Positions 31,587 through 51,900 of a DNA stretch of 64,000 nucleotides are shown here, piece by piece; position 1 is the stretch's first letter; the number at the start of each line of letters is the position of its first letter. Source of the stretch: an uncultured Planctomycetia bacterium (GTDB lineage: Bacteria > Omnitrophota > Gorgyraeia > 2-02-FULL-51-18); assembly GCA_964606485.1 (NCBI GenBank), contig CAZSGP010000001.1, positions 161,085 to 225,084 of the forward strand, in the 5' to 3' direction. Made by a program: the position numbers and the translations under genes. Below the pieces are notes generated by a model. The model searched no databases and was not told the origin of the DNA. It was given only the letters and a program-made list of their open reading frames with translations.

Positions 31587-31589
31587 ACA

Positions 31590-35086: not shown

Positions 35087-35115
35087 TTGACAGGTCTAAG
35101 CGCATTTGATATATT
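35087..35115 (+). promoter_or_regulatory. Consensus sigma70-like promoter TTGACA-17-TATATT
   Basis: TTGACA 35087-35092 and TATATT 35110-35115, inside a 136-nt intergenic gap. Confidence 0.5.
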
Positions 35116-35195: not shown

Positions 35196-35450
35196 ATGCC
35201 TGAAAAAAACGGCTCGCTCCTAACGGCTCAGGAAATATCCAAAAAATTTAAGGTGGCATATCCCACCATTAATCACTACACCGATTTGGGATTTCTCCAG
35301 ATTGTGAAGCGTCAGGGTAACCGCCGCATGTATGATGAGAGCGATGTGAAGAAACGCCTCGAAACCATCTCAGCCCTTGCCAATGAAGGCTACCCTTTAA
35401 GACTAATCCGTAAAAAGCTACTTGTAGATGGAGGGGGTGTGGAGCTATGA
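35196..35450 (+). CDS. Small MerR-like helix-turn-helix DNA-binding protein (84 aa)
   Basis: LTAQEISKKFKVAYPTINHYTDLGFLQIVKRQGNRRMYDESDV is a MerR/excisionase-type HTH (the 'T...I..Y...GLL....R...G.R.Y' pattern). ATGA overlap with the downstream ATPase gene. Confidence 0.5.
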   Translation: MPEKNGSLLTAQEISKKFKVAYPTINHYTDLGFLQIVKRQGNRRMYDESDVKKRLETISALANEGYPLRLIRKKLLVDGGGVEL

Positions 35451-36319
35451 GCTACTATCGCATCTTGGGCTTTGAAAAAGAGCCGTTCTCAACCAGCCCC
35501 GATCCGGAATTTTTCTACTCTTCGCGCGAACATGAGCGCGCACTCACCAATGTCTTGATTGAGCTTCGCTTAAAGCGGGGTCTGAGCGTGGTGCTGGGCG
35601 ATGTGGGCACCGGAAAGACCACACTGTCTCGTAAGCTCGTGCAGGATCTGAAAAACCGCGAAGACTGCTTGTTCCACATTGTCTTAGACCCTTCCTTTGA
35701 GGACCGCACACTTTTTTTAAGATCGCTCGTGCGGAATTTTGGAGCAGCCCCCGAAGCCGAAGCCCAGAAAATGGACGGAACCGCACTCCGTGAAGCATTT
35801 GAGCGCTTTCTCTTTCAAAAAGGGGTGGTGGAAAACCGCACCGTGATTCTTGTGATTGACGAAGCGCAGATGCTTGATCCGGTGACACTTGAAAGCCTGA
35901 GGCTTTTACTCAATTACGAAACCAATCAATTTAAATTGCTTCAGCTTGTGCTGCTCGGGCAGACCGAGCTTTTAGGCACGATTAAAGCGATCCCTAATTT
36001 TTTAGACCGGATTAGCTTTAAGTCGACGCTGAATCCCCTGGATTACAACGAAATGAAGGAAATGATTTTCTTTCGCATTTTGCAAGCCGGGTACAAGGCG
36101 AAAATGGATTTATTTTTAGAAGAGGCTCTGCGGGAAATTTACCAGCACACACAAGGGTACCCGAGACAGGTGACGATGCTTTGTCACCGCGCGCTCAAAG
36201 AGATGCTGATGACGAAGAAAATGGCAGTAGACTTGCAAATTATCGAAACGCTTATCGAAAGTGAGGTAGAGTCCGGATGGCACAGGAGCCAGGGCTTACT
36301 CCAGAAAAACAATTACTAA
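35447..36319 (+). CDS. ExeA/GspA/MshM-like AAA+ ATPase (secretin-associated)
   Basis: Walker A VVLGDVGTGKTTLSRKL, Walker B VILVIDEAQMLD, LVLLGQTEL. The family's characteristic N-terminus YYRILGFEKEPFSTSPDPEFFY is present. Confidence 0.75.
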   Translation: MSYYRILGFEKEPFSTSPDPEFFYSSREHERALTNVLIELRLKRGLSVVLGDVGTGKTTLSRKLVQDLKNREDCLFHIVLDPSFEDRTLFLRSLVRNFGAAPEAEAQKMDGTALREAFERFLFQKGVVENRTVILVIDEAQMLDPVTLESLRLLLNYETNQFKLLQLVLLGQTELLGTIKAIPNFLDRISFKSTLNPLDYNEMKEMIFFRILQAGYKAKMDLFLEEALREIYQHTQGYPRQVTMLCHRALKEMLMTKKMAVDLQIIETLIESEVESGWHRSQGLLQKNNY

Positions 36320-36990
36320 ATCTGATTGAGAACGGTCAGAAAGCTGAGACCGGCACAGGCACGGGTGTGCCCGGAGCGCCGGCCGCGGCTCAAACGAAGA
36401 CCGCTGCTCGGTCCGGACGTTTTTCTTTGGGAGCTTTGCGGGGCGCGGTGCTTGGAAGATTTTCATTCTTTAAGCGCACGACGACGAAGAAGATTTCAAA
36501 ATCAAAAATTCGCCTGAGCCTCGGACTGGCGAATAAGTTTTTAGCGGCCGCCGCAGTGGTGTTGTTTTTTTACGTAGCGTCCGACGTGACTTTTTCTATG
36601 ATGGAACTCGGCAAGGCGCCGAACTTACTGTTTCAGGATGGAAAAGCACAGACTCCAAGTGCGGCTGGACAGGTTTCTCCTTTAAGAGACCAAGCTTATT
36701 ATTCGCAAAAAATATCCTCACGGGATATTTTTAAGGGAGAGGCAGAAAAAAGGGAAAAGAAAAAGGAAGCAGCTGCGCCGCTGGCTGATGCCGGGGAAAA
36801 ATTTAAGAACCTTTCACTTGTCGGAATTTCGTGGTCGAGCAATCCGGATGCGATCATTGAGGACAAGGACCGACAGAAGACTTTTTTTGTGAAGCGCGGA
36901 CAGATGGTGGGGGCGGATATCAAGGTAGAGTCTATTTTAAAAGACCGGGTGATCTTAAGCTTTGACGGCGAGGAATTTGAATTAAAATGA
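36277..36990 (+). CDS. Membrane-anchored periplasmic protein with PilP/GspC-like C-terminal beta domain (candidate secretin-docking component)
   Basis: Single TM (LAAAAVVLFFYVASDV). The C-terminus FFVKRGQMVGADIKVESILKDRVILSFDGEEFEL resembles the PilP / GspC-HR secretin-binding domain. ATGA overlap with the secretin gene. Confidence 0.3.
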   Translation: MAQEPGLTPEKQLLNLIENGQKAETGTGTGVPGAPAAAQTKTAARSGRFSLGALRGAVLGRFSFFKRTTTKKISKSKIRLSLGLANKFLAAAAVVLFFYVASDVTFSMMELGKAPNLLFQDGKAQTPSAAGQVSPLRDQAYYSQKISSRDIFKGEAEKREKKKEAAAPLADAGEKFKNLSLVGISWSSNPDAIIEDKDRQKTFFVKRGQMVGADIKVESILKDRVILSFDGEEFELK

Positions 36991-38786
36991 TTCCAAAAAC
37001 ACGCGATGGAAAATGGGTATTGGCACTACGGGTTATCGTTTTAAGCTTCATTATTTTCTTATTGCCGATTTCTGACCGGCCGACGCCAAAAGCGATTGCG
37101 GCGGATGAAGAGGCGGCGAGTTCGGAGTCTCAGGATCAGTCATCTCCCACCGAAGAGCCCACAGCTCAAGATGTTTCATCCGATGCGCCTCTAACCCCGC
37201 TTTCTGAACAGCAGACACCCGCAGACCAATCCATTCAGGCAGGCTCCGCTGGGCTTGATGAAAAAGTGTCGCTCGATCTAAGAAACATCGACGTGACGGA
37301 CGCGCTCCGGTTTTTGGCTCAAAAAGCGGGTTTGAATCTCGTCATTTCAAAATCCGTCACCGGCCGCGTTCAACTGCTTCTCAACAACGTACCCGTGCGG
37401 GACGTGATGGACCTTATTATGATCACGGGCCAACTCGCCTATGAAAAAAGAGGGGACATCTATTACATTATGACTGAAGCGGAATTCAAAGAACGCTTTG
37501 GGCGAAAATTTTCGGACACCCGCCAAGTCAAAGTGTTTCGTTTGAAATACGCTGTGCCGGACCAGGCTTTTTCACTGTTCGAAATTTTAAAGAGCGAAAT
37601 CGGTCGTTTGCTGGTGGACCCTGAAACGGGAACCGTGCTCGTCATGGATACGCAGGAAAACATTGACCGTATGCAGAGGGCGCTTGAAGGACTTGAACAA
37701 AAGCGCCAAATAAAAGTATTCGATTTAAAGTATGCCAAAGCCTTGGATGTGGAAGCGCGTCTCAAAACACAGCTGGACGCTAAAAAGGTGGGGCTTGTGA
37801 GTTCTGATGAGCGCACCAACCAAGTGATTGTTGAAACGATCAGCGGACGAATGGAAGATGTGGAAGCGCTGATCGCGGATCTGGATCAAAAAACGCGCGA
37901 AGTTTCCATTGATGCAAAAATCGTTAAAGTTACCTTGAGCGACGACTTTAATGCGGAGATTCAGTGGGAAGGACTGGCTTCCCGAGTCGCCAAATACGGC
38001 ACTCAATATTTTTCCAATCACCCGTTTGCGCCGGTGGTTCGCACGAATCGTACGCAGGTTGATAATTTTACGAATATTCAACCAACGGCCAATCCCGCGG
38101 CGGGGGTGAAGAGCACATTGACTGAGAATCTATTTCTCGGGTTTATTGATAATGACGATGCGTTCGAGCTTTTAATCAACTTCCTAAAGACTATTGGGAA
38201 AACTAAAATTTTATCCAATCCAAAAATTACTGTGACCAACAATCAGGAAGCCAAGATTCACGTCGGTGAAAAACAGGCGTACGTGACCACCACAACGACG
38301 ACGGGTCAAAACACCACGACGACCGCCGAATCCGTGACCTTCATCGATATTGGTATTCAATTAGCAGTGACCCCAACGATTAACGCGGATGATTATGTGA
38401 CGATGAAAGTGAAGCCCGAAATTTCAAGCGTCTCAACATTTCTAATTACCCCCAGCGGAAACAAAATTCCGATTATTGATAGCTCCACCGCGGAAACCAA
38501 TGTCATGGTTAAAAATGGAACCTCGATCGTCATTGGGGGTCTTCGAAAGGATGAAAAGACTGAAACCCGGAAGAAGATTCCACTGCTGGGCGATATTCCT
38601 ATTCTCGGGAAGCCCTTTAACTCGTTTAACACGACGAATGAGCGCTCCGAGCTCCTGATTGTGATTACGCCAAACATTGTCCAGGGGGACACGCTGGTTA
38701 GCGAAGGACGACCTGTGGGAGAAAAACCGTTTTTGCCTTATACCGACTATTCTGATTATAATAGCCCCATGAAGGTGAGAAAATGA
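36987..38786 (+). CDS. Secretin (GspD/PilQ/MshL family outer-membrane channel)
   Basis: Signal/anchor WVLALRVIVLSFIIFLLP. The N-terminal region LDLRNIDVTDALRFLAQKAGLNLVISKSVTGRV is N0/secretin-N like. The C-terminal secretin domain reads VMVKNGTSIVIGGLRKDEKTETRKKIPLLGDIPILGKPFNSFNTTNERSELLIVITPNIV. Confidence 0.85.
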   Translation: MIPKTRDGKWVLALRVIVLSFIIFLLPISDRPTPKAIAADEEAASSESQDQSSPTEEPTAQDVSSDAPLTPLSEQQTPADQSIQAGSAGLDEKVSLDLRNIDVTDALRFLAQKAGLNLVISKSVTGRVQLLLNNVPVRDVMDLIMITGQLAYEKRGDIYYIMTEAEFKERFGRKFSDTRQVKVFRLKYAVPDQAFSLFEILKSEIGRLLVDPETGTVLVMDTQENIDRMQRALEGLEQKRQIKVFDLKYAKALDVEARLKTQLDAKKVGLVSSDERTNQVIVETISGRMEDVEALIADLDQKTREVSIDAKIVKVTLSDDFNAEIQWEGLASRVAKYGTQYFSNHPFAPVVRTNRTQVDNFTNIQPTANPAAGVKSTLTENLFLGFIDNDDAFELLINFLKTIGKTKILSNPKITVTNNQEAKIHVGEKQAYVTTTTTTGQNTTTTAESVTFIDIGIQLAVTPTINADDYVTMKVKPEISSVSTFLITPSGNKIPIIDSSTAETNVMVKNGTSIVIGGLRKDEKTETRKKIPLLGDIPILGKPFNSFNTTNERSELLIVITPNIVQGDTLVSEGRPVGEKPFLPYTDYSDYNSPMKVRK

Positions 38787-39925
38787 ACCCAGCTATTCCG
38801 GAACCGGAGATTCCCATCAAGGCCGCCAAGCCCAGGAAAACTCTGCCCCCCATTAAATTGCTCGACCCTCTTACGCTGCTCGTGCTGGCCCTCGGGATTT
38901 CCGTGAGCTTAAATTTATTCGTCCCGTACTTTTTAATTAAAAAAGGCGCGTTGGGATCTGCCGAGCTTAGGCAAGACCACACCAAGCTTAAAAAAAATTA
39001 TGAAGAGCTGCAGAATAAAAAAAATGAGGTTGAAGCTGATCGCAATAACATTTTAGCGCAGACAAAAATTCTCTTGTCTGAGAAGTCCAAATTTTCAGAA
39101 ACTCAAACCGAGCTTGAGGAAGCCAAAAAAAGCAACGGGATTTTGATGTCTCAAAAAGTCAAACTGCTTTCGAGAAGCGAGGAGCTAGAGTCCCGCAGCG
39201 AGGAAATGTCTCAAAATTACAGCCGCTTACAGTCTAATTATTTAGACCTGCAGGCTCAACACGAGACTCTGCAAACGGAAAATATTGAATTGAAGGTTAA
39301 GCTGAATCGGTCGGTTGAAACCTCGCCTCAGTATTCCAAATTGAGCATTGAGCGGAATAATTTGGTTAAGGAGAATAAAAAGCAAAGCGATCAAATTAAA
39401 TCTCTGACCGATCAAACAAAGAAGATTCAGGAGCGTTTGGCAAAATTGGCCGGACGGGAGGGCCAGCTCTCCAAGCAAATACAGGCCCTTAATAAAACCG
39501 TGCGCGATCTCAAATCAGAAAAAGCTAAACTTGAAAAAGCTAACCAAAATGTGAATCGAATCGTGGCCGAGGGGCCGGCGCACTTCAAGGATATGGCCAA
39601 TCAAAACAAGAACCTCATCAAAGAAACTTCCACTATGCACTACAATATGGGTGTATTTTTTACTCAGAAAAAAGAATACGACCGGGCGCTTACGGAGTTT
39701 CAGCGGGCGCTAGACTTTGATCCGACAAATGCAAAAGTGTTGTACAATTTAGGCTACCTGTGTGCAGAACATTTTGAAAATCACGAAAAGGCGGTTGAGT
39801 ATTTTAAGCGGTATTTGCAATTAAGCCCCAGCTCGAAAGAGTCGGAGGCTATTAAGAGCTACGTGTTGGTTCGGCAGGCCTATACGGGACCTGAAAGATT
39901 TAAGGATATGAAGAAAGAGTTTTAA
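38783..39925 (+). CDS. N-anchored coiled-coil protein with C-terminal TPR repeats (MshN/PilF-like candidate)
   Basis: TM LLDPLTLLVLALGISVSL, then ~230 aa of heptad-rich sequence (K/E/L/Q), then TPR-like YNMGVFFTQKKEYDRALTEFQRALDFDPTNAKVLYNLGYL... ATGA overlap with the secretin gene. Confidence 0.55.
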   Translation: MNPAIPEPEIPIKAAKPRKTLPPIKLLDPLTLLVLALGISVSLNLFVPYFLIKKGALGSAELRQDHTKLKKNYEELQNKKNEVEADRNNILAQTKILLSEKSKFSETQTELEEAKKSNGILMSQKVKLLSRSEELESRSEEMSQNYSRLQSNYLDLQAQHETLQTENIELKVKLNRSVETSPQYSKLSIERNNLVKENKKQSDQIKSLTDQTKKIQERLAKLAGREGQLSKQIQALNKTVRDLKSEKAKLEKANQNVNRIVAEGPAHFKDMANQNKNLIKETSTMHYNMGVFFTQKKEYDRALTEFQRALDFDPTNAKVLYNLGYLCAEHFENHEKAVEYFKRYLQLSPSSKESEAIKSYVLVRQAYTGPERFKDMKKEF

Positions 39926-39946: not shown

Positions 39947-40537
39947 ATGAAGAAGCAGACTGTTGTTATTTTGGGGTTGGGATTGCTGGTTTCAGTGTGC
40001 CTAAGCACCGCGCAAGCGGCTGATTCTAAAAGCGATTCTAAAATTGAAAAAAAGTTGGCCGAAAACCAAGCCAAAAGAAAAGCCGAGTTGAAAGACACAG
40101 AGTGGAAGGTGACCTTTTATTCCAATAAACCGACGGATAAAGACGCGGAAAATGGATCACTTGTCTTCTCCGCCGAAACGATGACATTCAATGGTTTTAA
40201 TAAAGTAGATCTTGGGACCATTGGTTATACGCTGACGGCCTATGCGGACAATGACAAGGGAATGCTTGAAACCTATAAGCCCACAAAGGATGGAAATATT
40301 TCGTTGCGGGCTGATTGGCAAGGACAGATCATGAATGGTGTTATCAGCGAGCAGAAAAATGGTGGTAAGGATGTAAAGACTTACCGCTTCACCAGCGTGA
40401 ATCAGGTTTCGCCTTTAGCGAATCAAGATGAATCAAAAAAGGAGTCTTTGGAAGCGGCGGCTCCGGTAGATGCGGCGCTCCCAGTAATGGCATCAACTGA
40501 AAAAGCGGTTGAAAAATCCGAAAAGAAGAAGCGCTGA
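39947..40537 (+). CDS. Small secreted protein (signal peptide + ~100-aa TEWKV-type beta domain), unknown function
   Basis: Signal peptide MKKQTVVILGLGLLVSVCLSTAQA and a strong SD (GGAGGA). The domain core DTEWKVTFYS...ADWQGQIMNGVISEQ...KTYRFTS is shared with the C-terminus of the next gene. Confidence 0.5.
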   Translation: MKKQTVVILGLGLLVSVCLSTAQAADSKSDSKIEKKLAENQAKRKAELKDTEWKVTFYSNKPTDKDAENGSLVFSAETMTFNGFNKVDLGTIGYTLTAYADNDKGMLETYKPTKDGNISLRADWQGQIMNGVISEQKNGGKDVKTYRFTSVNQVSPLANQDESKKESLEAAAPVDAALPVMASTEKAVEKSEKKKR

Positions 40538-40564
40538 TCTTCTATCGTATTGAGATTTCTGTAA

Positions 40565-40598
40565 ACAAGGGGGTCTTTCAAGGACCCCCTTGTTTTTT
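40565..40598 (+). terminator. Rho-independent terminator
   Basis: ACAAGGGGGTC-tttcaag-GACCCCCTTGT followed by TTTTTT (11-bp GC-rich stem, 7-nt loop, U-run), 28 nt after the stop at 40537. Confidence 0.8.
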
Positions 40599-40609
40599 AA
40601 TATCCAAAA

Positions 40610-40638
40610 TTGACACCGCTGTATGTCCGCACTATGAT
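40610..40638 (+). promoter_or_regulatory. Sigma70-like promoter TTGACA-17-TATGAT
   Basis: TTGACA 40610-40615, TATGAT 40633-40638, 36 nt upstream of the ATG at 40674. Confidence 0.5.
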
Positions 40639-40673: not shown

Positions 40674-41909
40674 ATGCCAAGACCGCCTCGTATAGAGCTG
40701 GAAGGCGCCGTTAATTTTGTTACTTCCAGAGGAATAAACAACCAAGAAATTTTCAAAGACAAGTCCGACTTTGCTACATATTTAGAACTGGTCAAAAAAT
40801 ACAAAGACCAGCACCGCTTTAAACTTTTTGCTTATCTTTTGCTGCCTGAAAAAATCATGCTCTTGATTGAGTCCGGAGCAGGCGCCACAATTTCCGAAAT
40901 CATGCATGACCTCAACTCGCTTTACACCAAATACTTTAATGGACGCTATGGCCGTAAGGGTCATTTATTTGAAGCGCGTTTTCGTTCGGCGCTTGTCGAA
41001 AAGGCGGTGTGCTTGCCCGAGATTACGCGGTATTTGCACCGGCAGGCCCCCGATTTTTCAAATTACCTTTTTTCAACATACTCATTTTATGTTAAGGCGA
41101 TTTCAGGAACCGGCGCGATCGAGGCGATCAACGCAGAGCTTAATCTCGCCGAAGAAATTGGGGAGGCCTCCGCTATTTTTAAATCAAATTTCGGTCAAGC
41201 CAGTTATGAAGCCTATTGCGAACAGGCCACTTCCGATCAAATGAAGGAACTTGAAAAGAACCTCCGCAGTTCCAAAGTCTTTGGATCGGAAGCGTTTAAA
41301 GTGAGGGTCGAACATGAGATAGAACATCGCCGCACTCATTTGCAGGAAAAGGAGTTGGAAGCCGAGGAGGTTAAAGCCAAGGTCAAGCGTAGAACCGTTT
41401 ACTTGTGGTTAATCGGATCGCTGGTGCTGCTTGCCGGAAGTTTATCGATGTATCTTTACACGACAAAAAAAGCCGTGGAAACGCAGTACCGTAATTTGCT
41501 CACACTCAAAGAGTCAAATTTTGCTGAGCGCACAAAGTTTGAAAACCAGAGCCCGCTGGGTTTGAATGATCTGGAAGGGACTGAATGGAAGGTTGAACTC
41601 GTTTCGCCCCAAGGCTCTACGCCAGATGTCTTGCATTTTGAGGGGGGGCGGTTTTATTCGGATCACTTCGCGAAGCTAGGGTTCCGGGACACCAGCTATT
41701 TTCTAATTCCACAAGGCAACCGGAAGGTGCTTTGGCAGGCGGCCCAATCTTCCTCCAAGGGGGATAGTCTAAATTGGCAAGGGACCTGGCAGGGGGACGC
41801 CATGAAGGGCGACCTTAATTTTGTAATTTCTAACCAATCCGCTCAAACCTACTCTTTCTATAGTAAAGAGTGGTCATACGCCACAGCGCTCGTCGCGCAA
41901 AATAGTTAA
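40674..41909 (+). CDS. Fusion protein: N-terminal inactivated IS200/Y1-transposase-like (COG1943) domain, then coiled coil, a TM helix, and a C-terminal TEWKV-type extracytoplasmic domain
   Basis: Residues 1-120 match the Y1_Tnp fold pattern (AVNFVTSRG..., LFAYLLLPEKIMLLIE, YTKYFNGRYGRKGHLFEARFRSALVE), but the HuH histidines are replaced: EKIMLLIE where N-H-V-H-LLIE is expected. TM VYLWLIGSLVLLAGSLSMYLY. C-terminal domain GTEWKVELVS...LNWQGTWQGDAMKGDLNFVISNQ...QTYSFYS. Confidence 0.55.
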   Translation: MPRPPRIELEGAVNFVTSRGINNQEIFKDKSDFATYLELVKKYKDQHRFKLFAYLLLPEKIMLLIESGAGATISEIMHDLNSLYTKYFNGRYGRKGHLFEARFRSALVEKAVCLPEITRYLHRQAPDFSNYLFSTYSFYVKAISGTGAIEAINAELNLAEEIGEASAIFKSNFGQASYEAYCEQATSDQMKELEKNLRSSKVFGSEAFKVRVEHEIEHRRTHLQEKELEAEEVKAKVKRRTVYLWLIGSLVLLAGSLSMYLYTTKKAVETQYRNLLTLKESNFAERTKFENQSPLGLNDLEGTEWKVELVSPQGSTPDVLHFEGGRFYSDHFAKLGFRDTSYFLIPQGNRKVLWQAAQSSSKGDSLNWQGTWQGDAMKGDLNFVISNQSAQTYSFYSKEWSYATALVAQNS

Positions 41910-42147: not shown

Positions 42148-42903
42148 ATGACAAAAAAATCAAAGAAAGTGAATGTTAAACGTAAAAAATTAACAAACGA
42201 AGAGAGAATTTTTCAAGACTCTCTCGTTCGTAGTGCGTGGCGTCGCTATCGTGTCAATAGTGCCGCATATATTTTTGCCTCCCTAGTTCTTCTAATGAGT
42301 TTTTCCGCATACGCAGAAACCGAAGCCACTAAAGTTGCGAAGCCTGTGCCAAGCGCTAAAGCGCCATCTTCTCTTGCTAGTAAAGAGGGGGAGGCGAAGT
42401 CAGACACCACGGCCAAGAAAGCAGATCTTGCACCAGCAAAAAAAATCAAAAAAAATAGAGACGTGAGAGAGCCTTTCTCAAAATTTAAACTTCCGGATGT
42501 AAACGAAGCGGATGACAAGGAGCCAAGCACCTCCAAATATTTAAAAGGCCGGATCTCGACGATCACCGCTTACGGGATGGGAATTGTCTATGGTGGCGAT
42601 CCGACCATCGGACAGTTGGAATCCTGGAATAATTTTAATAGTAAGACCAAGATCGACGGATTTAAAAAATTCACCGATCTAAAAGAAGGGGACACCGTCG
42701 AAATAAACTACAAGCAAACGATTAAAACCCATAAAAGGATATTGGCAAGAGTTACGCTGGTTCACAAAATGACTAAGGAAGAAAGAGCGGCTGAAGAAAA
42801 GGCTTTGATGGATACGCCGGATGAACCCGTGGTTCCGGAGCCAGTCGCGGCAGTTAAACCCGTTTCAAAAGGAACGACCAATGGCGCAGGCAAAGCACTT
42901 TAA
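42148..42903 (+). CDS. Lys-rich signal-anchored/secreted protein, unknown function; 3' end overlaps the giant gene's start
   Basis: Hydrophobic segment AAYIFASLVLLMSFSAYA followed by a K/A/E-rich low-complexity stretch and a ~110-aa globular C-terminus. The stop at 42901-42903 is 20 nt after the ATG of the giant ORF. Confidence 0.4.
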   Translation: MTKKSKKVNVKRKKLTNEERIFQDSLVRSAWRRYRVNSAAYIFASLVLLMSFSAYAETEATKVAKPVPSAKAPSSLASKEGEAKSDTTAKKADLAPAKKIKKNRDVREPFSKFKLPDVNEADDKEPSTSKYLKGRISTITAYGMGIVYGGDPTIGQLESWNNFNSKTKIDGFKKFTDLKEGDTVEINYKQTIKTHKRILARVTLVHKMTKEERAAEEKALMDTPDEPVVPEPVAAVKPVSKGTTNGAGKAL

Positions 42904-45900
42904 AGCCAAATCGTTTTTTGCGACATCGCTAATTCTAGCGGGGCTGTGTTTATTTTTTACAGCGGACGCGCATGCGGTGCAAATCAAAAAAATCTATAGA
43001 GGCACGGTCAACTTCGATTTTGACGACGTGTCGCAATCGGTGGATATCGGCGCTGCGGTGGACACCACCAAATCCATTGTTCTTTTATCGCTCACCGCGG
43101 AAGGATCCTTCACCGAAGCCGATCAAAACTGTTTTTTTGCGGCGCAGTTTGAAGATGCGAGCACGCTTTACATTGACCGCGCGGGTGCTACCAAAGCGGC
43201 AGGTGTTATTTGGCAGGTGATCGAATTTAACGACGGCGTCAATGTTCAAAGAGGAATTACCAGTCTTCCCAATGGAACGGCATCGCAGTATTTAACAAAA
43301 ACCATCGATTTGCCGGCAGCGCTTACGTCAACATCCACCGCAGTGCCGATTCTTTTTACTCGCATGGCCTACACCAATACTGATTTTACGCATGTTATGA
43401 TGGTTGTTCCGACTCTCCCCAATGTCAATCAATTAACGGTTTCACGCCTTCATAATTCTAAAACTGCTAAAACGGTGACCATGGTGTGGCAGATTATCGA
43501 ATTTTTGAAAGACGCGTCCGTTGTCACCGGCACAGCGACGCTGCCTCAGCCTGGAGCGGTGACGATTGATCAAACGCTCAACGTGGATATATCAGGCATG
43601 ATCACGCTCAATAACGGAGGGCAGAACGCGCTGCTTTTTTTCTCGACGCAAGCCGGTACGGCAATAGCGGGAACGGACGCGCGCATCTTTGTTCGCGGTA
43701 GAATCACGTCGGCAACCAACTTGCAATTCATCCGAGCTTATGCCTCGAATAACGCCAATATGACGGTGCCCATCCGTTACTATGTCGTTGATTTAAAGGA
43801 ATCCACCTCTGGTAATGCGCTTGGGTATGGAAATATCTACGGCAGCACCACGGAGGGTCCTGGGATGACCCCCAACCCCAATCTTCGATCGATTTCAAGC
43901 TCCACGAACACCACACCTATTATGATCCAAATGAGCAATACCCACGGCTTTAACGCAAGCGGCGGCCAGTGGGTGACGATTAACGGCCATAATACCAACA
44001 CGAACGCGAATGGCACGTGGAAGGCAATTGTCGGCGTTAATTGCACAAACGGGACTGCCGGAGCCGGCGATTGCACGACTTCTCAGTTTGAGTTAACCGG
44101 TTCTATCGGAAACGGCGTGGGTGGCGCCACGGGTCAGGTTTGGATGAATCCACAAACTTTCGTTGTGAGCACTGCTACCAATGCGAATCCAATCGTTGTC
44201 ACGACCAGTGCTGTCAATAATTTTGAAACAGGGCAGCGTGTGCAGATTGTTGGCGCCACCGGCAACACCGCGGCCAACGGCACTTGGATTATCACAAAGT
44301 CGGGTACGGTAGGGACGCAATTTACGATTCCCGTGGCCGGAAACGGTGCTTACGGGGCAAACAGCGCCTATGTTCAGCCGGTTGATCTTGCCGTTACAAA
44401 TAAAAATATTGCCGCTTCCACGAATGCGACGCCGATTAGCATAAATATTAATGCTCATGGCTATGCGACGGGTCAGTACGTGAGAGTGGCTAACCATACA
44501 CCCAATACCGGGGCCAATGGACAGTGGTTTATCACTGTTACGGATGCTAATAACTTTACTTTAAATGGTTCGGTGGGAAATGGCGCCACTTCGGCCACTG
44601 GTACGGTGGGCGTTTCAAATATTGCGATTACGTCGTCCACGAATGCGAGTCCTATCAGTCTTAACGTAGCCAATCACGGTCTGGTTTCTGGACAGTTGAT
44701 CCGAATTTTAAGTCATGTCACCAATACAGCCGCCAACGGGGTTTGGTATGTCACCGTGACGGACGCTAATAATTTTACGCTCAATGGTTCGACTGGGAAT
44801 GGTGTGGGCGGCGCAACGGGCGTGATGTTTCCGATCCCCACGGGTTGGCGCATTGAATCCAGCGACGACTTGGTGTATCCAAACGAAATTACTTTAACGT
44901 GCACCGCGCACCCTTTTTCAAATGGGCAGCTGATCAACGTTTCTAATCACTATATTAACAACAGCACCACGAACTCCACGGCCAACGGAAACTGGATTGT
45001 TAAAAGCGCAACGGCCAACACGCTGACCTTGACCGGATCTTTGGGTACCAACGGCGACGGGTCCGGTGCGGGTGGAAGAACCGGTTGGATCACCCCCGCA
45101 AACGTGAATGCCATTCCGGCATCGAGCGTGGAGAGAACAATCGTGATTCCGTCGACGTCCGTATCGGGCAGCACGCAAAATAATACAGCCTCAGAGGCGA
45201 GGATGGCGAGCTACTTGTCGAGCCCCACCACGCTTCATTTTATGCGCGATATCACCGCTAAAACGTTCCCTGCGGATTTTAACGTCTCTATTTTTGAATT
45301 CCCGTCAATCACCCTGACCTACCCAACGACGGCGACCTCTCTAACGGTGGGAACGAGCTATCCTTTTACATGGAAAAATTCTTTGGATGTGGCCGCCCAC
45401 GATTACAAAGTCCAATTTTCGGTTGATGCGCCCCATGCGGTTTGGAATGATCTGGGTAGTGTTTGCGTCGATGGAACCCAGTCTTGTCAAGGATCCCTGC
45501 AGACGGCGCCCACGACCTTAGCGGCCGGAACAGTCAACGTGAAAATCCCTGATAATCTTGGAACCACGGCTAAGTTTAGAATTTGGGATGTGGTGGATGG
45601 CGCTACGCTAGCAGCCGTTCGGGTTAGCGACGCTTCGAACGAAAATATGAAACTGATTAGAAATTTGACGTTGACGGATCCAGTGGGCGGCGAAAATTGG
45701 ACAGTGGGGGATCTTAAAAATCTGACTTGGACTTTTAGAGGTTTTACGAATTTCGGGACGGTGAAAATAGAGTACTTCGACGGCGCGTCTTGGGCGACGG
45801 TGCCGGGTGCCGGAACATTGGCTGTGAACAACGGGGGCGGTTCGAGCGACCCGTTCGCCGGAACAGGTTCGTTTACTTGGTCCCAGATTCCCAATCTCAC

Positions 45901-48900
45901 CGGAACCAATCAGGCGCTGGTTAAATTTAGAATTGTCGCCAATGATTCTGCCATTGATGGAACCGCTTTTACGAGCACCTCCGGAAATCTTACCGTTCGG
46001 CGGGGACTGACTCTCACGTCTTTAAACTCAGGAACCTACAACGACCAAACACCTATCGATATTACCTGGGATTATTTGGGTGAAAAGACCGCCGATGCGT
46101 TTGACTGGGGAAACTTAAAATTCGAATTTTGTAATAACGGTGTCTGTGCCCAACCCTCGGACTGGACCAGTCTTCCGATTACAACGGGCCCAACGACTTA
46201 TCTTGCGGATCAGGCGGTGAATATTAATGAGACGGGAACGCCTCCTTTTTCAGGAGCCGGTAAGTATGTTTGGACAATTCCGACCGGCTTTACCACCAAC
46301 GGAGCGCAAGCCAAGATCAGAATTTCAAGTGCCAGCGATCCTAGCATTATTCAGACGTCCTCAAGTTTTTTTACAATCAATCCGACGGTCAGGTTGCTCA
46401 CTCCCTCATCTACGGGCATTGTGATGTACCGCGGGGGAAGTTCGTATGACATTACTTGGACAGCAGATGCTTCTATTGCGAACGTAAAACTGGATTATGC
46501 AACTGATGGCGTAACGTTTAGCAATCCAATTGCGGCGAGCGTGGCTTCTTCAGGCGTGGGCACTAATACTTACTCATGGACCGTGCCGAATAATGTCGGA
46601 ACCAATGTAAAAGTAAAAATTGGAAATGCCGATACGATCGGCATCTACCCGCCAGGCTCATTCACCGCGGTTTCAGCAAATCCATTTACGATTAAAGGCA
46701 GTATCGACGGCATTACACCCAATAGCGGAACCGTTCCTTATGCTGCTCCTTCTGTTTCGGTCACCTGGAACTCCCACGGAGCTTTAGGAAATGTGAAAAT
46801 ATTTTTATCATCCGATGGCAGCACCTCCAATTTTCCGACTCAGCTAAATTCCGGATCGGTGGCAGGCGGCAATGACACCAGCAGTCCCAACAGTTTTTCA
46901 TGGGATTTGACAAGCCCCAGCATTCCGCCGGGAACGTACGTGATCCGCGTTCAAGAAGTGGATGGGGGCGGTACTCCGATCGGGGATGTTTACGGTGATT
47001 CTTCCGCGACATTTAAAGTGGTTGGAGCGATAGCGATTACGAACCCTCCGGTGAATCCGAGTCCTCCGACGTGGGTTGTAAACCAAAATGATGCCACGAC
47101 ACTTTTAACTTGGACAAAAAATCCAGGCTCGCTTGGAAACGTGAAGGTGGAATATTCCATTGACGACGGCGCGACGTGGCCGGGCGGCGCTCAAATCATC
47201 AGCGCTTCCAACAGTGGAACGACGCAAGCATTTACCGTGCCGGCATCCGCGGTGAGCGCAAGTTACATGAAATTCAAAGTTAGCTTGGTCAGCGATCCAA
47301 CCAATGTTCAGGCAACGTCTGACCGCGTCAAAGCCAGAGGCACTTTGCAAGTTGTTCTCCCCAATGCCACGACTGATATTTTAAAAGTTGATCAATCGTA
47401 CAACATCACGTGGACCAGCAAAGATTTCCTAAATAACGATTTGAACTGGGACAATGTCGATATCAGCTATTCCTTTGACGGAACGATTTATACGCCCATT
47501 ACTGGCGTAAACGGCGTTCCGGCCATTCCAGCGGCGTACTCCTGGACTCCCGATCCCGCTGTTCAAAGTGACACGGTTAAAATTAAAGTTCAGGGCCACA
47601 CTTACACCGACGTCGCAGACACCTCGGATAATTTTTTCAAAATTAAACCGAATATGGTTATCTTGACGCATAACGGCGGCGGCGCTCCAATCTGGTACGT
47701 CGACGCATATTCTGCCGCCGCGAGCATCACCTGGGAAACGCATGCGAAAGCGGGAACTGTCAATAACGTGAATCTTTATTATTGCAAAGGCGCTTTGGCG
47801 GATGATTGCGCAGGTTCAGGAACGTGGAACGCGATTCCGGGAACGGCGGGACTTTCGAATATTAATGCCTACAGCTGGAGCGTGGCGGATGCGATCGGGC
47901 CCTACACCCGTGTGAAAGTGGAGCCTCTGGTAAACGGAGCGACCGACGCGACGCTGGCGGATATTTCCAACAATGATTTTACGATTCGCGGCGCTTTTGA
48001 GTTTGTTCAGCCGGCCGCGGCGGCGATTTTAAGAGTGGGTGCTACGCCCACCATTCAGTGGACGAATCACGGCACCATGCCGAATGCGCCGACTCCGAAT
48101 ATTTCGATTAAATATACGCTGAACGGGTCAGTTTACACGGATATTGATGGCTCGCAACCTTTGACAAATGCCGCAGCGTATGGTGGTCACACCTATAACA
48201 CTTGGACGATTCCAGACGCGGCACGCGGAGCAGTGGGACTCAAAATTCAATGGGAAGGGGACGCAGCCAATGTGAATGCGACCCGCGCCGTTTCAATCAA
48301 GCCCGATATTGTGATCAATTCTCCCAACGGCCTCACCTACCACATTGGAGATACGCCCGTGATTGAATTCACTCATACGGGACGCACGTCGGATACTTTT
48401 AAAGTCCGCTACTCCATCGACGGCGGCACAAACTGGAGCGACGCGGGAGCGAGTCCTACGGTGACCAGTGTCGCGCCGAACACGCCTTACACTTTCTCGC
48501 CGGCACCGGCGTTTACGATTCCAAACGACACTGGCATTGTGGTGCCGAATCAATTTAAAATCCGCGTGGAGCTTGTGGGTGATGAGACCGATGTGAAAAA
48601 AGATTCGGCCGTGAACACTATTTTAGGGAAATTGGCACCGGTATCGGCGCCGGCGGGTCCTTGGACCGCGGGTGTGACGACCCCGAATATTACGTGGACG
48701 CCCCAGGGAATCACGACGGTTAAAATCGAATACGCAACCGACGGAGTCACTTTTTCGAACGTCATTAACAATACGGCCACCGGAAATAATTATACGTGGC
48801 CGGCCATTCCCGGCTCGGCCGTCAGCGACAATGTCAAAGTTCGTGTCACCGCGCAAGACGCTAATGATAGCGTCACTTCCGTTACAACGGGCAGTGCCGT

Positions 48901-51900
48901 GACAATTTTACCGCAACTGGTTTTAACGGCTCCGAATGGACCTCTGGCGCGTTACGTTGGAGATGCATTGCCAATTACGTGGAATAGCACGGGTGCCGGA
49001 AATATTAAAATTGAATATACGTCCGATGCCGATCAGGTGACCCCAACTTGGACAACGCTGCCGGGCTATGGCACGGTGGACAGCACGCCGCAGAGCGCTT
49101 CGAATGCGTCGGTGCCGAATGTGATCAGCAATCATGTGAAATTTAGAATTACTAATTTAAACGCGAATCCTGCTTTGGTAGTGACAAGCGAGTCCTCGAT
49201 TGAATTTCCGATTAAGGGTTCGCTGGTTCTAAATTCTCTGACTGCGGCCGGACTTTCTTACACATTGGGCGATCAGCCGGATGTGAGCTGGACTCCCAAC
49301 GGAAGCATTGGGGATATCACTGTGGAATATTATAACGGTTCGAGCTGGAGCACGCTCACAACGACTGCTCCTGAAAGCGGGCCGTTTTCACTGCTATTGG
49401 ATGCGGCAAATGGAATCACCACTGCCACCAATTTAGCAAAGGTGCGTATTTCTGCAACAAACGGATCAACCGCCGTCATCGCATCTGCCAATGCTTTTAT
49501 TGTGAAGCCGCTTATTTCTGTTACGGCACCGTCGGCCGGAAATGATGTCTGGAGAGTGGACGATTCCAACGCCGTCGGGACGGAGCGCTTTATTACCTGG
49601 ACTAAAAAAGGCGCCAACATTGCCAATGTGAAAATCGAATATTCTACCGATAATTTTTCGAGCGACATCAACGAGATTTATGCGTCGACAGCGAACGACG
49701 GCACGCAGAGTTGGTCCGCTTCAGCGGGTGCTACTTCCGACGTTCCGGACGTGATTAACCCCTCGCCAAATATCAAAATTCGAGTTTCGACATTGCCCAC
49801 TTCAGACCCATGGGCTGTTTCGGCAACTTCTTCGGTTTTTAGAATTATCGGACAATTGCGAATGGATACTCCTGACGATGCAACTCCTGCGAAGTGGACG
49901 ATTAATTCCACAAAAACAATCGGGTGGACCAACTTGCACGGAACTATCGACAATGTCAAAATTTATTATTCAACGGCCGGCGATGGAGGCCCGTGGACCA
50001 TACTCCGCAATAGCGGAGGCACTATTGCTACTGTCCCATCAGGGGGTCCCGGAGCTCACACTTACGATTGGGCGATTCCTGACGATTTTCCGATTGTAAA
50101 AGATGATTTTAGATTGAAGGTTGTGGACGCCGACAATTCAAATGTGGAAGATGCGTCCACCGCCGCAAGCTCTACGCTTTCCAAATTTACTTTCGTTCAT
50201 CCCATCACAACCGACGTGTGGGTGGCCGAAACTACGCATACCATTCAGTGGACCACTGCTCAAGCGGGTGTCCCGGCAAACGTCAAGATTGAAGTCAACA
50301 CCGGTTCGGGATGGACCAATCTCGTTGAGAATGAAGGAACGGCCAACGATGGCATCATCGTGAATGATGGATCTCAGCCGTGGCTTCTTTCCGCAACAAG
50401 ATCGCTTGCCGCGCAAGTGCGGATTTCAGATCCTTCAAATTCAACCGACAGTGTGACGCTGAGCCAAACTTTTAAAATCAGAGGAGATTTAACGGTTCAA
50501 ATTCCATCTGATGGAACGCAGTCATGGAGTGTTGCTGCGAGCAATGCCGACACGCATGCGATTACTTGGGTGAAGAAGGGAAATATTGCGAACGTTAATC
50601 TTCAAATGACCAAAGACTTTACCGCCGGAACGCCGGTGTGGGAAAATCTTGCGGACGGGACAACACCGACGCCGCAAGTCACGCAAAATCTTGATGTAAC
50701 CGGAAGCGCTAATGGCCCCTACACCTTTACTTGGGTGGTTCCGAATATCGCGGGTATCACGACTACCAAAGCAGCTATTCGCGTGGTAGACGCTTCTGAC
50801 GGAACTGTTTTGGATGACTCCGATAATATCTTCACGATCAAAGGAAACGTTGCACTCACCGCCCCGAATGGGGGAGGCACTTACGCTGTCGGAGACTCAA
50901 TCACGATTAGCGGCACTTTGTTCGGTCCGATCACAAAGATCCGTCTTTTCTATACCAAATTGGGCGTGAATTACAATCTGCTCGGAGTTGCCGGTCAATA
51001 TTCGACCATGGACGTTGGCGGAGCGTCTTTTACGACGAGCAGCAATCTGGTTCCGAATTTAATTGGAAACGGAATCACGATGACGGTGCAGGACGATTCG
51101 AACACCACCGTTCAAGATGTGTCCGATGCGAGCTTCGGTTTTAAAGGCAATGTCGGCATCACCGCTCCGACCACAGCCGGCACAACAGGTTCACCGTTTA
51201 TCGCGAATACTTCTCAGGATATTGTTTGGGATCGCTTTGGCTCGATCGGCAACATGACGTTTTATTACAGCGTAAACGATGGCCCCTATACGGCGGTCGC
51301 CGGCGCCGGTGCTGTTCCGTCCCCCTCAGCTAGCGGCAATACTTTTTCATGGACGGTTCCTGATGATTCCATTGTTTCGAACAATGTTAAAATTAAAATG
51401 ACGGGACCCGATCTTTATAATGATGTGATTTCCGAACCCTTTATCGTGAAAGGCAGTATTGCAATCAACGCTCTGGCAGGTCCTTATGTGTTGGGGGACG
51501 ATGTCAATTTAACGTGGACGGCTCACGGAGACATTGGTGTTGTCAAAGTTGAATATTTTGACGGCACGGGTTGGAACGTGATCACAAGCTCCGCGCCGCA
51601 AAACGGACCCTATACACTAACTCTCGACACCGCTACTGGTATTACAAAAGCAACAAACATTGCTCAAGTTCGAGTTTCTGCGAATGCCGACCCGGCGGTT
51701 GTCTCAACATCCGGACAATTTATGGTGAAGCCGCTCATCACTGTGACGGCACCTGCGTCCGGTAATGATATTTGGAGAGTCGACGATTCCAATACGGTGG
51801 GAACGGAGCGACTCATCACATGGACCAAGAAAGGTTCAAACATTGCGAATGTGAAGATTCAGTATTCTTCCGATAATTTCGTGAGCGATATCAACGACAT

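Follow-up and report, generated by a model that had tools for sequence, protein, structure and literature searches.

Organization of the operon

The window, the whole 64-kb stretch of DNA analyzed here, contains an operon on its + strand that encodes, in this order, a MerR-like helix-turn-helix (HTH) protein, a short GspA/MshM-like ATPase, a minimal GspC, a secretin, a membrane-anchored coiled-coil/TPR protein and a small periplasmic protein. A first-pass annotation had recognized the four middle genes as a module, and a check of the open reading frames (ORFs) finds these four on the + strand at the positions assigned to them. The unit, however, comprises six genes rather than four, since a MerR_1 gene, the gene of a 196-aa protein, a promoter-like site and a terminator have to be added to it. 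The promoter-like site (35087..35115, +) is situated 5' of the operon and reads TTGACA-17-TATATT with an extended TG, which is a match to the consensus only, at 11 of 12 positions. The first gene (35196..35450, +) codes for an 84-aa MerR_1-type HTH protein (Pfam MerR_1, 44.3 bits) and overlaps the start of the ATPase gene by 4 nt. A MerR_1 gene occupies the equivalent position in 49-56 of the 80 related loci. The 3' end of the operon carries a strong intrinsic-terminator-like hairpin (40563..40595, +), the 15-bp stem of which includes 7 GC pairs and is followed by a run of T. The cassette genes remain grouped together in about 70 of the 80 Omnitrophota loci, and in some lineages the cassette is duplicated in tandem.

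The operon is located, as had been noted, between a glycan locus and a giant gene. The glycan genes occupy positions 1-30,576 and extend at least 6 kb past the window start; the giant ORF begins at 42881. The observation that the window encodes no pilins, GspE or GspF also holds: phmmer searches with GspE, GspF, GspG, GspH/I, GspJ, GspK, GspL and GspM queries give 0 matches among the 271 ORFs of the window, and a six-frame scan of the window for the prepilin motif gives a single chance match, within a glycosyltransferase.

Proteins of the cassette

The ATPase (35447..36319, +) is a 290-aa AAA+ protein of the GspA/ExeA/MshM-like type (Pfam AAA_22, 77.9 bits) with Walker A (GDVGTGKTT) and Walker B (LVIDEAQ) motifs visible in its sequence. 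It contains no TM-like segment and no peptidoglycan-binding domain, and is very highly conserved among the 70 loci compared. Its best NCBIfam match is TIGR03015, the XrtA/PEP-CTERM system-associated ATPase. Together with more than 41 kb of glycan genes directly upstream and a GldA/F/G-like ABC transporter, this match could suggest that the cassette belongs to a PEP-CTERM/exosortase system, or to one for polysaccharide export, that works for the neighboring glycan locus. Such an assignment is extremely improbable, as the score (174.6) is far under the cut-off of 324.5, the Pfam-annotated contexts contain no exosortase or PEP-CTERM protein, and the upstream neighborhood is not conserved, glycan genes being present only at the window and its nearest relatives. 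Among relatives, the DNA 5' of the MerR gene varies from glycan genes to two-component systems, a T2SSE ATPase and pseudopilin genes, which speaks against the proposed link of the cassette to the glycan locus.

The GspC-like gene (36277..36990, +), found in 69-80 loci, overlaps the ATPase gene by 43 nt, and this overlap is conserved across loci. Its 237-aa product, a GspB/C-like protein, matches T2SSC over residues 94-234 (45 bits, cut-off 27), its T2SSB score (23.8 bits) being under the cut-off of 28.4. Its N-terminal motif, which is cytoplasmic and conserved, is followed by a single TM segment and, at the C-terminus, by an HR domain with weak matches in the PDB to those of GspC and OutC; the protein has neither a PDZ nor a coiled-coil domain.

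The 380-aa coiled-coil/TPR protein (38783..39925, +) has a TM-like segment (residues 21-45), a coiled coil of about 200 aa and TPR_1/2/8 repeats at residues 283-351. It has no lipobox Cys, and its scores against PilW (31.9) and Tgl (35.4) are both far under the cut-offs. Conservation is found mostly in the TPR part, and the coiled-coil length ranges from 305 to 1,134 aa among loci. The protein likely acts in the periplasm, as a tether of the secretin or as a factor in its assembly.

The secretin (36987..38786, +; 599 aa) is recognized by Pfam Secretin (165 bits) and Secretin_N (67 bits). In its AF2 model a signal peptide and a disordered linker are followed by N0, two ring-type N domains and the secretin domain; there is no S-domain. 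The protein passes no NCBIfam equivalog cut-off: PilQ (270.2, below 284) scores slightly above GspD (241.4, below 351), and MshL reaches 178.8 (below 250.2). A phmmer search against the PDB likewise gives PilQ 133 bits and GspD 116. With Foldseek, the GspD family ranks first (ETEC GspD, PulD, ExeD and EpsD). Tandem secretin paralogues occur in other lineages.

The giant gene and its neighbors

The giant gene (42881..64000, +) remains open in frame to the end of the window and encodes more than 7,040 aa; its orthologue in locus L167 is complete, with 6,838 aa. The protein starts with a Sec-type signal (MAQAKHFKAKSFFATSLILAGLCLFFTADAHA), has no TM-like segment beyond it and no Pfam domain, and is rich in T, A, G, V, S and N, with 0.2% Cys. 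The suspected association between the cassette and giant genes is borne out. Of 35 species loci where the downstream DNA extends over at least 9 kb, 24 have a giant ORF on the same strand just downstream of the cassette, as against 1 of 41 upstream. It is therefore plausible, on the basis of conserved synteny only, that the secretin is the conduit and the giant protein its cargo. To our knowledge, a folded protein of about 0.7 MDa is far larger than any known T2SS substrate.

Three smaller genes are found between the TPR gene and the giant gene. The last gene of the operon (39947..40537, +) encodes the 196-aa secreted protein, which has an N-terminal signal and a beta-barrel domain and belongs to no Pfam or NCBIfam family. 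Its barrel is homologous, via members in L017 and L044 (E 1e-10 to 1e-14), to the C-domain of a RAYT-like membrane protein (40674..41909, +; Y1_Tnp, 29.8 bits) encoded between the cassette and the giant gene. The latter protein, a conserved neighbor of the cassette, has a cytoplasmic RAYT/IS200-fold domain that a TM segment connects to an 8-strand beta-barrel in the periplasm (AF2 model, pLDDT 87.5; Foldseek match 4er8, TM-score 0.68). Its HUH motif is degenerate (PEKIM, the consensus being PDHLx), and its family has 99 members in 56 of the 80 loci. The third gene (42148..42903, +) overlaps the start of the giant gene and encodes a signal-anchored protein of 251 aa with no family match, homologues of which are found directly 5' of the giant ORF in 17+4 loci.

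The remaining components of the secretion system

The first-pass annotation had interpreted the locus as a T2SS-like system of which only the envelope parts are left. Taken further, the cassette would be a stand-alone outer-membrane conduit dedicated to the giant protein, which lacks a pseudopilus and motor and is opened or fed by the ATPase and the GspC-like protein; phage pIV with pI/pXI provides a loose analogy. The absence of motor and pilin genes from the 64-kb window plus 6 kb upstream, the giant genes that accompany the cassette in about 70% of species, the very conserved ATPase of its own and the tandem duplication in some lineages would all fit such a conduit. The rest of the contig, however, speaks against it. 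The window's secretin (P0001) and a GspL-like PilM/PilN fusion protein (P0183) are each singletons on one 546,306-bp contig. A short Logan contig with P0183 from the same sequencing run (SRR12487046) has the order MA peptidase-GspG-x-T2SSJ-GspK-GspL-GspM, so that GspG, minor pseudopilins, GspK, GspL and GspM are encoded on the same contig as the cassette. As the Logan contig ends 1.3 kb past gspM, the gspE-M operon of the source genome may conceivably have a second secretin beside it. The GspG scores 138.7 bits against TIGR01710, over the equivalog cut-off of 88.85. From the conserved gene order in relatives we infer that gspE, gspF and a prepilin peptidase are present as well; E and F precede G in 25 of the 30 loci with enough upstream DNA.

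The relatives point in the same direction. The closest one on a long contig, CAZXLF010000002.1 (66% secretin identity), has its secretin at about 119.5-121.2 kb and a full gspE-M operon on the same strand at about 155.8-165.1 kb. About 34 kb separates this operon from the cassette; the giant gene lies in that interval, and the gspE-M operon is followed by a Rotamase_2/cyclophilin PPIase. There is no secretin in the record around this operon (153.1-174.6 kb). The cassette directly adjoins gspE-M genes in about 10 of the 78 related species. The order in L029 is AAA22-GspC-secretin-TPR-GspE(MshEN+T2SSE+PilZ)-GspF-GspG-pseudopilin-GspJ-GspK-PilM/N-GspM, and in L085/L018 it is T2SSG-x-T2SSJ-T2SSK-PilN-x ... 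MerR-AAA22-T2SSC-secretin-TPR; T2SS parts adjoin the cassette also in L017, L044, L050, L055, L059, L079 and L082. In the secretin tree, the clade of the window has the T2SS-contiguous cassettes as its sister group, and such cassettes also turn up in places among the giant-linked ones, which points to one orthologous secretin family. Conversely, only 7 of 80 metagenome loci fetched with GspL have a secretin of any kind, and none is found in 26 of the 32 such loci in which gspM is followed by at least 6 kb. Most gspE-M operons of the phylum thus have no secretin or GspC of their own, and the cassette would supply the missing C and D parts. As the ATPase also has no TM segment or known translocase features, the stand-alone conduit is very unlikely, and this reading is already largely refuted.

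These observations make it very probable that the cassette genes form the outer-membrane half, a gspA-like/gspC/gspD sub-operon, of a split T2SS of otherwise ordinary type in a Candidatus Omnitrophota bacterium, and that the operon for its motor, platform and pseudopilus is located elsewhere on the same 546-kb contig. The first-pass annotation had considered, as a less novel alternative, a PEP-CTERM/MSHA-type locus with its other parts elsewhere; the separate location is supported, the identity is not, since the other parts are those of a T2SS of the GspG/GspK type. A role of the secretin in a true pilus, MSHA-like or type IVa, instead of protein secretion is very unlikely. PilQ is the best match of the secretin both in NCBIfam and by phmmer against the PDB. 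An MSHA-type layout would also suit the short ATPase and the TPR protein, which mirror MshM and MshN, the MshEN domain of GspE and the platform protein, an MshI-like PilM_2+PilN fusion. However, the major subunit in the source genome and in L029 is over the GspG equivalog cut-off, the minor pseudopilins include GspK-type (T2SSK_1st) and GspJ-type ones and are accompanied by a T2SSM_b protein, the best-scoring models for GspE and GspF are those of the T2SS, the MshL score of the secretin is below its cut-off, and no PilT-type retraction ATPase is seen in the Pfam-annotated loci.

A possible mechanism of secretion

By combining the properties of the families involved, from which we infer all of the following steps, it is possible to describe how the split T2SS might work. 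The secretin, exported by Sec, would form a gated channel in the outer membrane. The GspC-like protein would use its conserved cytoplasmic N-terminus to keep the short AAA+ ATPase at the inner membrane, and the ATPase would help the secretin to assemble, as ExeA/ExeB do. The TPR protein, anchored in the inner membrane, may span the periplasm with its coiled coil and position or stabilize the secretin. The HR domain of the GspC-like protein would bind the N0 domain of the secretin, coupling the channel to the GspL/M/F platform. The second operon would provide gspE-gspF-MA peptidase-gspG-minor pseudopilins-gspK-gspL(PilM/N)-gspM. GspE, which is probably under c-di-GMP control since it carries MshEN and PilZ domains, would then drive the growth of the GspG pseudopilus, and periplasmic cargo would be pushed out via the secretin. 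Judging by synteny only, the giant protein, which is exported by Sec and whose gene follows the cassette, is a likely candidate for this cargo.

Comparison with other secretion systems

Split T2SS gene sets have precedents. In Pseudomonas aeruginosa, xcpPQ (gspC-gspD) is transcribed apart from xcpR-Z, and the lsp genes of Legionella pneumophila are scattered over several loci. As in these systems, GspC and the secretin are encoded in a transcription unit of their own, and both halves must cooperate. In contrast to them, the C-D unit also contains the MerR-type gene and those of the short GspA-like ATPase, the coiled-coil/TPR protein and the small periplasmic protein, its GspC has no PDZ or coiled-coil domain, and it adjoins a giant gene in most species.

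ExeA/ExeB (GspA/GspB) is the secretin-assembly pair of the Aeromonas and Vibrio T2SS. The cassette similarly pairs an AAA+ ATPase of the same family with a single-pass partner, whose periplasmic domain resembles the secretin-binding domain of GspB/GspC. Unlike ExeA, the ATPase is short and has no TM segment or peptidoglycan-binding domain. The gspE-M operons show no other GspC, so that a single protein appears to take on the roles of both GspB and GspC. In the Vibrio MSHA pilus, MshL, MshM and MshN are the secretin, a short ExeA-like ATPase and a TPR protein. The split T2SS shares this combination and the MshEN domain of the motor ATPase, but its filament genes are of the GspG/GspJ/GspK type, its secretin is below the MshL cut-off and its gene order is different.

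The linkage to the giant gene is the real pattern left, and earlier reports exist of T2SS-like loci in the vicinity of giant genes in Omnitrophota. West-Roberts et al. described such a locus upstream of these genes (2023, bioRxiv 10.1101/2023.11.21.568195; repeated in 10.64898/2026.06.07.730766), with gspD, gspE, gspF and a Rotamase_2 PPIase near the giant genes (10.1101/2023.11.21.568195). In both papers the locus is a single one with more than 10 genes, rcpC among them, beside multi-TM giants (10.1101/2023.11.21.568195; 10.64898/2026.06.07.730766), and a term search of the 2023 paper finds no mention of secretin, ExeA or MerR (10.1101/2023.11.21.568195). The phylum is the same, and the gspE-M operon of CAZXLF010000002.1 is similarly followed by a Rotamase_2/cyclophilin PPIase. 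Unlike the multi-TM giants, the giant protein of the window, of about 7,000 aa, has an N-terminal signal only.

Organization of the secretin operon

ORF calls and family matches place four genes on the forward strand exactly where the first-pass annotation had them: an AAA22 ATPase (35447-36319), a GspC-like protein (36277-36990), a secretin (36987-38786) and a coiled-coil/TPR protein (38783-39925). The unit is larger than the module of four that had been described, because it also includes a MerR_1 gene (35196-35450, 84 aa), which overlaps the start of the ATPase gene by 4 nt, and, as the last of six genes, that of p196, a secreted protein of 196 aa (39947-40537). The six genes lie between a promoter-like site at 35087-35115 and a strong terminator at 40563-40595, and a second promoter-like site (40610-40638) lies ahead of the next unit. 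The GspC-like and secretin genes overlap by 4 nt, as do the secretin and TPR genes; the ATPase gene shares 43 nt with the GspC-like gene. This longer overlap, from the start of the GspC-like gene to the stop of the ATPase gene (36277-36319), is read in two different frames and is equally long in the other loci checked, with both overlapping protein ends conserved across related loci.

No other parts of a type II secretion system (T2SS) or a pilus are present in the window, as had been stated. Searches of its 271 ORFs by phmmer with GspE to GspM queries gave no match, and a six-frame scan for the prepilin motif gave a single match, by chance, within a glycosyltransferase.

For comparison, 78 species-level loci were fetched by secretin alignment, and their ORFs were called and clustered. 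The order MerR, AAA22, GspC-like, secretin, coiled-coil/TPR is found in about 70 of 80 loci, the absences falling mostly at contig ends.

The other half of the secretion system

A canonical T2SS gene set directly adjoins the cassette in about 10 of the 78 species. In one such locus (L029), the order is AAA22, GspC-like, secretin, TPR, GspE (MshEN, T2SSE and PilZ domains), GspF, GspG, pseudopilin, GspJ, GspK, a GspL-like PilM_2/PilN fusion and GspM; its GspG exceeds the NCBI equivalog cut-off, and its GspE, GspF, GspK and GspM match best to T2SS models. In L085, L018 and their relatives the arrangement is reversed, GspG to GspM being followed by MerR, ATPase, GspC-like, secretin and TPR genes.

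The reverse view was obtained from 80 metagenome loci fetched by the GspL-like protein. Their operon consists of gspE, gspF, an MA peptidase gene, gspG, gspH/I, gspJ, gspK, gspL and gspM, with GspE and GspF present in 25 of the 30 loci that have enough upstream DNA. A secretin of any kind occurs in only 7 of the 80; it is absent from 26 of the 32 loci that extend at least 6 kb past gspM, and GspC was never found in the gspE-M operon of these loci. As these operons mostly lack a secretin and lack GspC, the cassette is their missing C/D half. Separate gspC-gspD units (xcpPQ of Pseudomonas) and scattered T2SS genes (lsp of Legionella) are established. Omnitrophota routinely split their T2SS into a gspE-M operon and a gspA-C-D-TPR cassette.

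Among relatives with long contigs, the closest is CAZXLF010000002.1, whose secretin is 66% identical to that of the window, and it carries both halves. Its secretin gene occupies about 119.5-121.2 kb, a giant gene starts near 125.7 kb, and a complete operon running from MshEN-gspE to gspM follows on the secretin's strand at about 155.8-165.1 kb, with a Rotamase_2-type PPIase gene downstream. There is no secretin in the record around this operon (153.1-174.6 kb).

In the source genome itself, a search that started from a close relative's GspL-like protein found a homologous protein of 481 aa (P0183). This protein and the window's secretin are each singletons, on the same 546,306-bp contig and from the same sources: the secretin occurs on that NCBI contig and on one Logan contig from run SRR12487046, and the Logan copy of P0183 comes from the same run. 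These Logan contigs measure 83 kb and 6.5 kb. The Logan contig with P0183 (L168) encodes, in order, an MA peptidase, GspG, a 116-aa ORF, a weakly matching T2SSJ protein, GspK, the GspL-like protein, which is a PilM_2 and PilN fusion, and a GspM-like ORF of 186 aa. GspG (L168:805-1221) scores 138.7 bits against TIGR01710, above the cut-off of 88.85; GspK matches T2SSK_1st and reaches 66 bits on its equivalog model, below the cut-off of 130. The contig begins inside the MA peptidase gene, so that any gspE and gspF would lie outside it. By analogy, the source gspE-M operon may lie just past the giant gene, beyond the window.

The source genome thus encodes a GspG above its equivalog cut-off, together with minor pseudopilins, GspK, GspL and GspM, and the first-pass view that only the envelope parts of a T2SS-like system are left is not supported. 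What looks like a secretin without a machine results from viewing one window. Since the phylum routinely splits its T2SS, annotators and genome scans should not call an isolated secretin cassette a reduced system.

Several features of the gspE-M operons deserve mention. A Peptidase_MA_2 gene separates gspF from gspG in 33 of the 36 T2SS operons retrieved by the GspL-like protein (metagenome loci L087-L166; other examples are L168:2-808 and L170:6635-7516); to our knowledge it is not a standard T2SS component. The ATPase GspE (L029:11175-13319; L170:2717-5366) has an N-terminal MshEN and a C-terminal PilZ domain, and in L170 a separate MshEN-only gene of 151 aa lies ahead of the ATPase gene. 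These domains suggest c-di-GMP control of GspE, layered with the MshEN-only protein in L170. Among the Pfam-annotated contexts, no prepilin peptidase (GspO/PilD) appears.

Assignment of the cassette proteins

The secretin matches Pfam Secretin at 165 bits and Secretin_N at 67 bits. Its AF2 model comprises a signal peptide, a disordered linker, N0, two ring-type N domains and the secretin domain, the S-domain being absent from the model, and its best fold matches (GspD, PulD, ExeD and EpsD) are GspD-type secretins. None of the NCBIfam equivalog cut-offs is reached: the scores are 241.4 bits for GspD (TIGR02517, cut-off 351.35), 270.2 for PilQ (284.35) and 178.8 for MshL (TIGR02519, 250.2). The secretin is unclassifiable by sequence model; its assignment to the T2SS rests on gene context. 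Its relatives at 45-70% identity are nearly all from Candidatus Omnitrophota MAGs.

The accessory sets nearest to the cassette are the GspA/B-type assembly ATPases and the MshL/M/N trio. The ATPase (290 aa; AAA_22, 77.9 bits) is cytosolic and very conserved across loci, with the Walker A (GDVGTGKTT) and Walker B (LVIDEAQ) motifs both visible. It has no TM-like segment and no PG_binding match, and gave no match to PDB sequences; it is a short, MshM-like form that fails the definition of a full-length GspA/ExeA. The GspC-like protein matches Pfam T2SSC over residues 94-234 at 45 bits (cut-off 27), its T2SSB match is below threshold, and it scores 28.2 bits against the TIGR01713 equivalog (cut-off 101.6). 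It combines a conserved motif on the cytoplasmic side with a single TM segment and an HR domain, lacks a PDZ or coiled-coil domain, and is the sole GspC candidate of the system. The coiled-coil/TPR protein has a TM anchor, a coiled coil of about 200 aa and TPRs at the C-terminus.

These matches bear on three other families. The best NCBIfam match of the ATPase is TIGR03015, the XrtA/PEP-CTERM system-associated ATPase, which would connect the cassette to PEP-CTERM systems. The score of 174.6 bits is about half of the cut-off of 324.5, and neither the window nor the related loci annotated with Pfam contain an exosortase, so that this link was rejected. An MSHA pilus, to which the MshM-like ATPase might point, does not agree with the MshL score or with the partner filament genes, which are of the GspG, GspJ and GspK type. 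For a type IVa pilus, with PilQ and a PilF/PilW/Tgl pilotin, the PilQ score falls short of its cut-off. An AMIN domain was found neither by Pfam or NCBIfam nor in the AF2 model, and the TPR protein is TM-anchored, has no lipobox and scores 31.9 against PilW (cut-off 154) and 35.4 against Tgl (cut-off 225). The fallback in the first-pass annotation, a PEP-CTERM/MSHA-type locus with its other parts elsewhere, was therefore right in substance and wrong in the family named, the partner being a GspG/GspJ/GspK-type T2SS.

The T2SS-linked and giant-linked secretins might represent two ancient paralogues. In a neighbour-joining tree of 95 secretins, built without bootstrap and thus weak evidence, T2SS-contiguous cassettes form a sister clade of the window's clade. 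Others are scattered among giant-linked ones, and this interleaving of contexts leaves the two-paralogue reading unsupported. The secretin sequences fit one orthologous family with a movable position.

Tandem secretin pairs occur in L038, L049, L059, L064, L066, L067, L071, L079, L082 and L083. In these loci the coiled-coil/TPR protein after the first secretin is much longer, up to 1,134 aa. The same tree suggests that the tandem secretins are lineage-specific paralogues. Two full cassettes, with secretins 66% and 60% identical to that of the window, are found in one MAG (assembly JAHFFM01; L008 and L014), and p196 and a RAYT-like gene come after each of them. The pair reflects a true duplication, or else the bin is mixed.

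The giant protein and its neighbours

Downstream of the cassette, the recurring genes encode RAYT-fold membrane proteins and small proteins with the same beta-barrel domain, a PPIase, a small signal-anchored protein and a giant ORF. In the window the giant ORF starts at 42881 with a Sec signal and runs for 7,040 aa up to the window end, without a further TM-like segment or a significant Pfam domain over that length. Its composition favours T, A, G, V, S and N, and Cys accounts for 0.2%; a complete orthologue in L167 has 6,838 aa. Near the N-terminus are modules of about 80 aa with an 'ANGxW' motif.

The co-occurrence of the cassette with giant ORFs is strongly directional. Among loci with at least 9 kb downstream, 24 of 35 have a giant ORF there on the same strand; upstream it is found in 1 of 41. 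The proposed link between giant protein and secretin thus holds as synteny, the two being neighbours in about 70% of species, while its function is unproven.

The RAYT-like protein (40674-41909, 411 aa) bears the database name 'transposase/RayT'. In its model (pLDDT 87.5) it is a single-pass membrane protein with a cytoplasmic RAYT/IS200 fold, the HUH motif being degenerate, and a periplasmic 8-strand beta-barrel homologous to p196. With 99 members, the family is present in 56 of 80 loci; its named matches in the searches run are almost all from Omnitrophota, and it is probably misnamed in databases. The protein may be a membrane-tethered regulator that binds nucleic acid, or a cargo adaptor. 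GspL-like proteins also seemed to cluster with the RAYT-like/p196 family, but this was traced to one weak 101-aa link and discarded.

By combining these observations, it is possible to outline how the system would work. The secretin would form the gate in the outer membrane, and the GspC-like protein should connect its N0 domain with the GspL/M platform. The ATPase probably works through the GspC-like protein's N-terminus, in the way that ExeA works through ExeB. The coiled-coil/TPR protein, presumably anchored in the inner membrane, varies among loci in the length of its coiled coil (305-1,134 aa) and is conserved at its TPR end, which would suit a tether across the periplasm or an assembly factor. 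The Sec-exported giant protein is, by synteny, the obvious candidate cargo. A doubtful extension is that, in most Omnitrophota, the secretin half has moved beside a Sec-dependent giant fibre protein, 6,800 to over 7,000 aa in length, and co-evolves with it, that the T2SS exports or surface-mounts this giant of about 0.7 MDa, and that the RAYT-fold and small beta-barrel proteins are its cargo-specific adaptors or regulators. Such a giant, if the true cargo, would be by far the largest T2SS substrate known to us.

T2SS-like genes beside Omnitrophota giant genes have already been reported, among them gspD, gspE, gspF and a Rotamase_2 PPIase (West-Roberts et al., 10.1101/2023.11.21.568195; 2026 preprint, 10.64898/2026.06.07.730766). 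Because the same kind of PPIase follows the gspE-M operon of CAZXLF010000002.1, the published locus probably represents the same system. A term search of 10.1101/2023.11.21.568195 for secretin, ExeA and MerR found none of them, and a search for publications on Omnitrophota secretin or pseudopilins found nothing specific to this cassette. What remains is that the cassette is linked, strongly and in one direction, to a domain-less family of giant secreted proteins, and with it an unnamed set of RAYT-fold and beta-barrel membrane proteins. This linkage offers a concrete, testable candidate route to the cell surface for some Omnitrophota giants.

The upstream side

Glycan-synthesis genes fill the window from 1 to about 30,576 and continue for at least 6 kb past its start, and the secretin had accordingly been considered as a conduit for the modified glycan. 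Across loci, the region 5' of the MerR gene holds glycan genes, two-component systems, T2SSE ATPase or pseudopilin genes; this variable context excludes a functional link with the glycan locus, and a role in glycan export was rejected. The glycan locus (window 1-30576 and the fetched locus L086) exceeds 41 kb, with many GT4/GT2/GT9 glycosyltransferases, several FkbM-type methyltransferases, a carbamoyltransferase and an ATP-grasp enzyme; two of its ORFs, 17076-18500 (about 474 aa) and 24151-25662 (about 503 aa), match no Pfam family. Proteins P0027, P0121 and P0242 each have a longest contig of 75,732 bp, which matches L138 and is suggestive of all three lying on one contig.

Immediately upstream of the window's cassette lie genes for a GldA-like ABC ATPase, a GldF and GldG fusion and a DUF4340 protein (30639-35059). 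In five close relatives (L007, L008, L010, L015 and L016) this set falls within the block, after the TPR gene and before p196, and in this clade it may therefore be part of the giant protein's neighbourhood.
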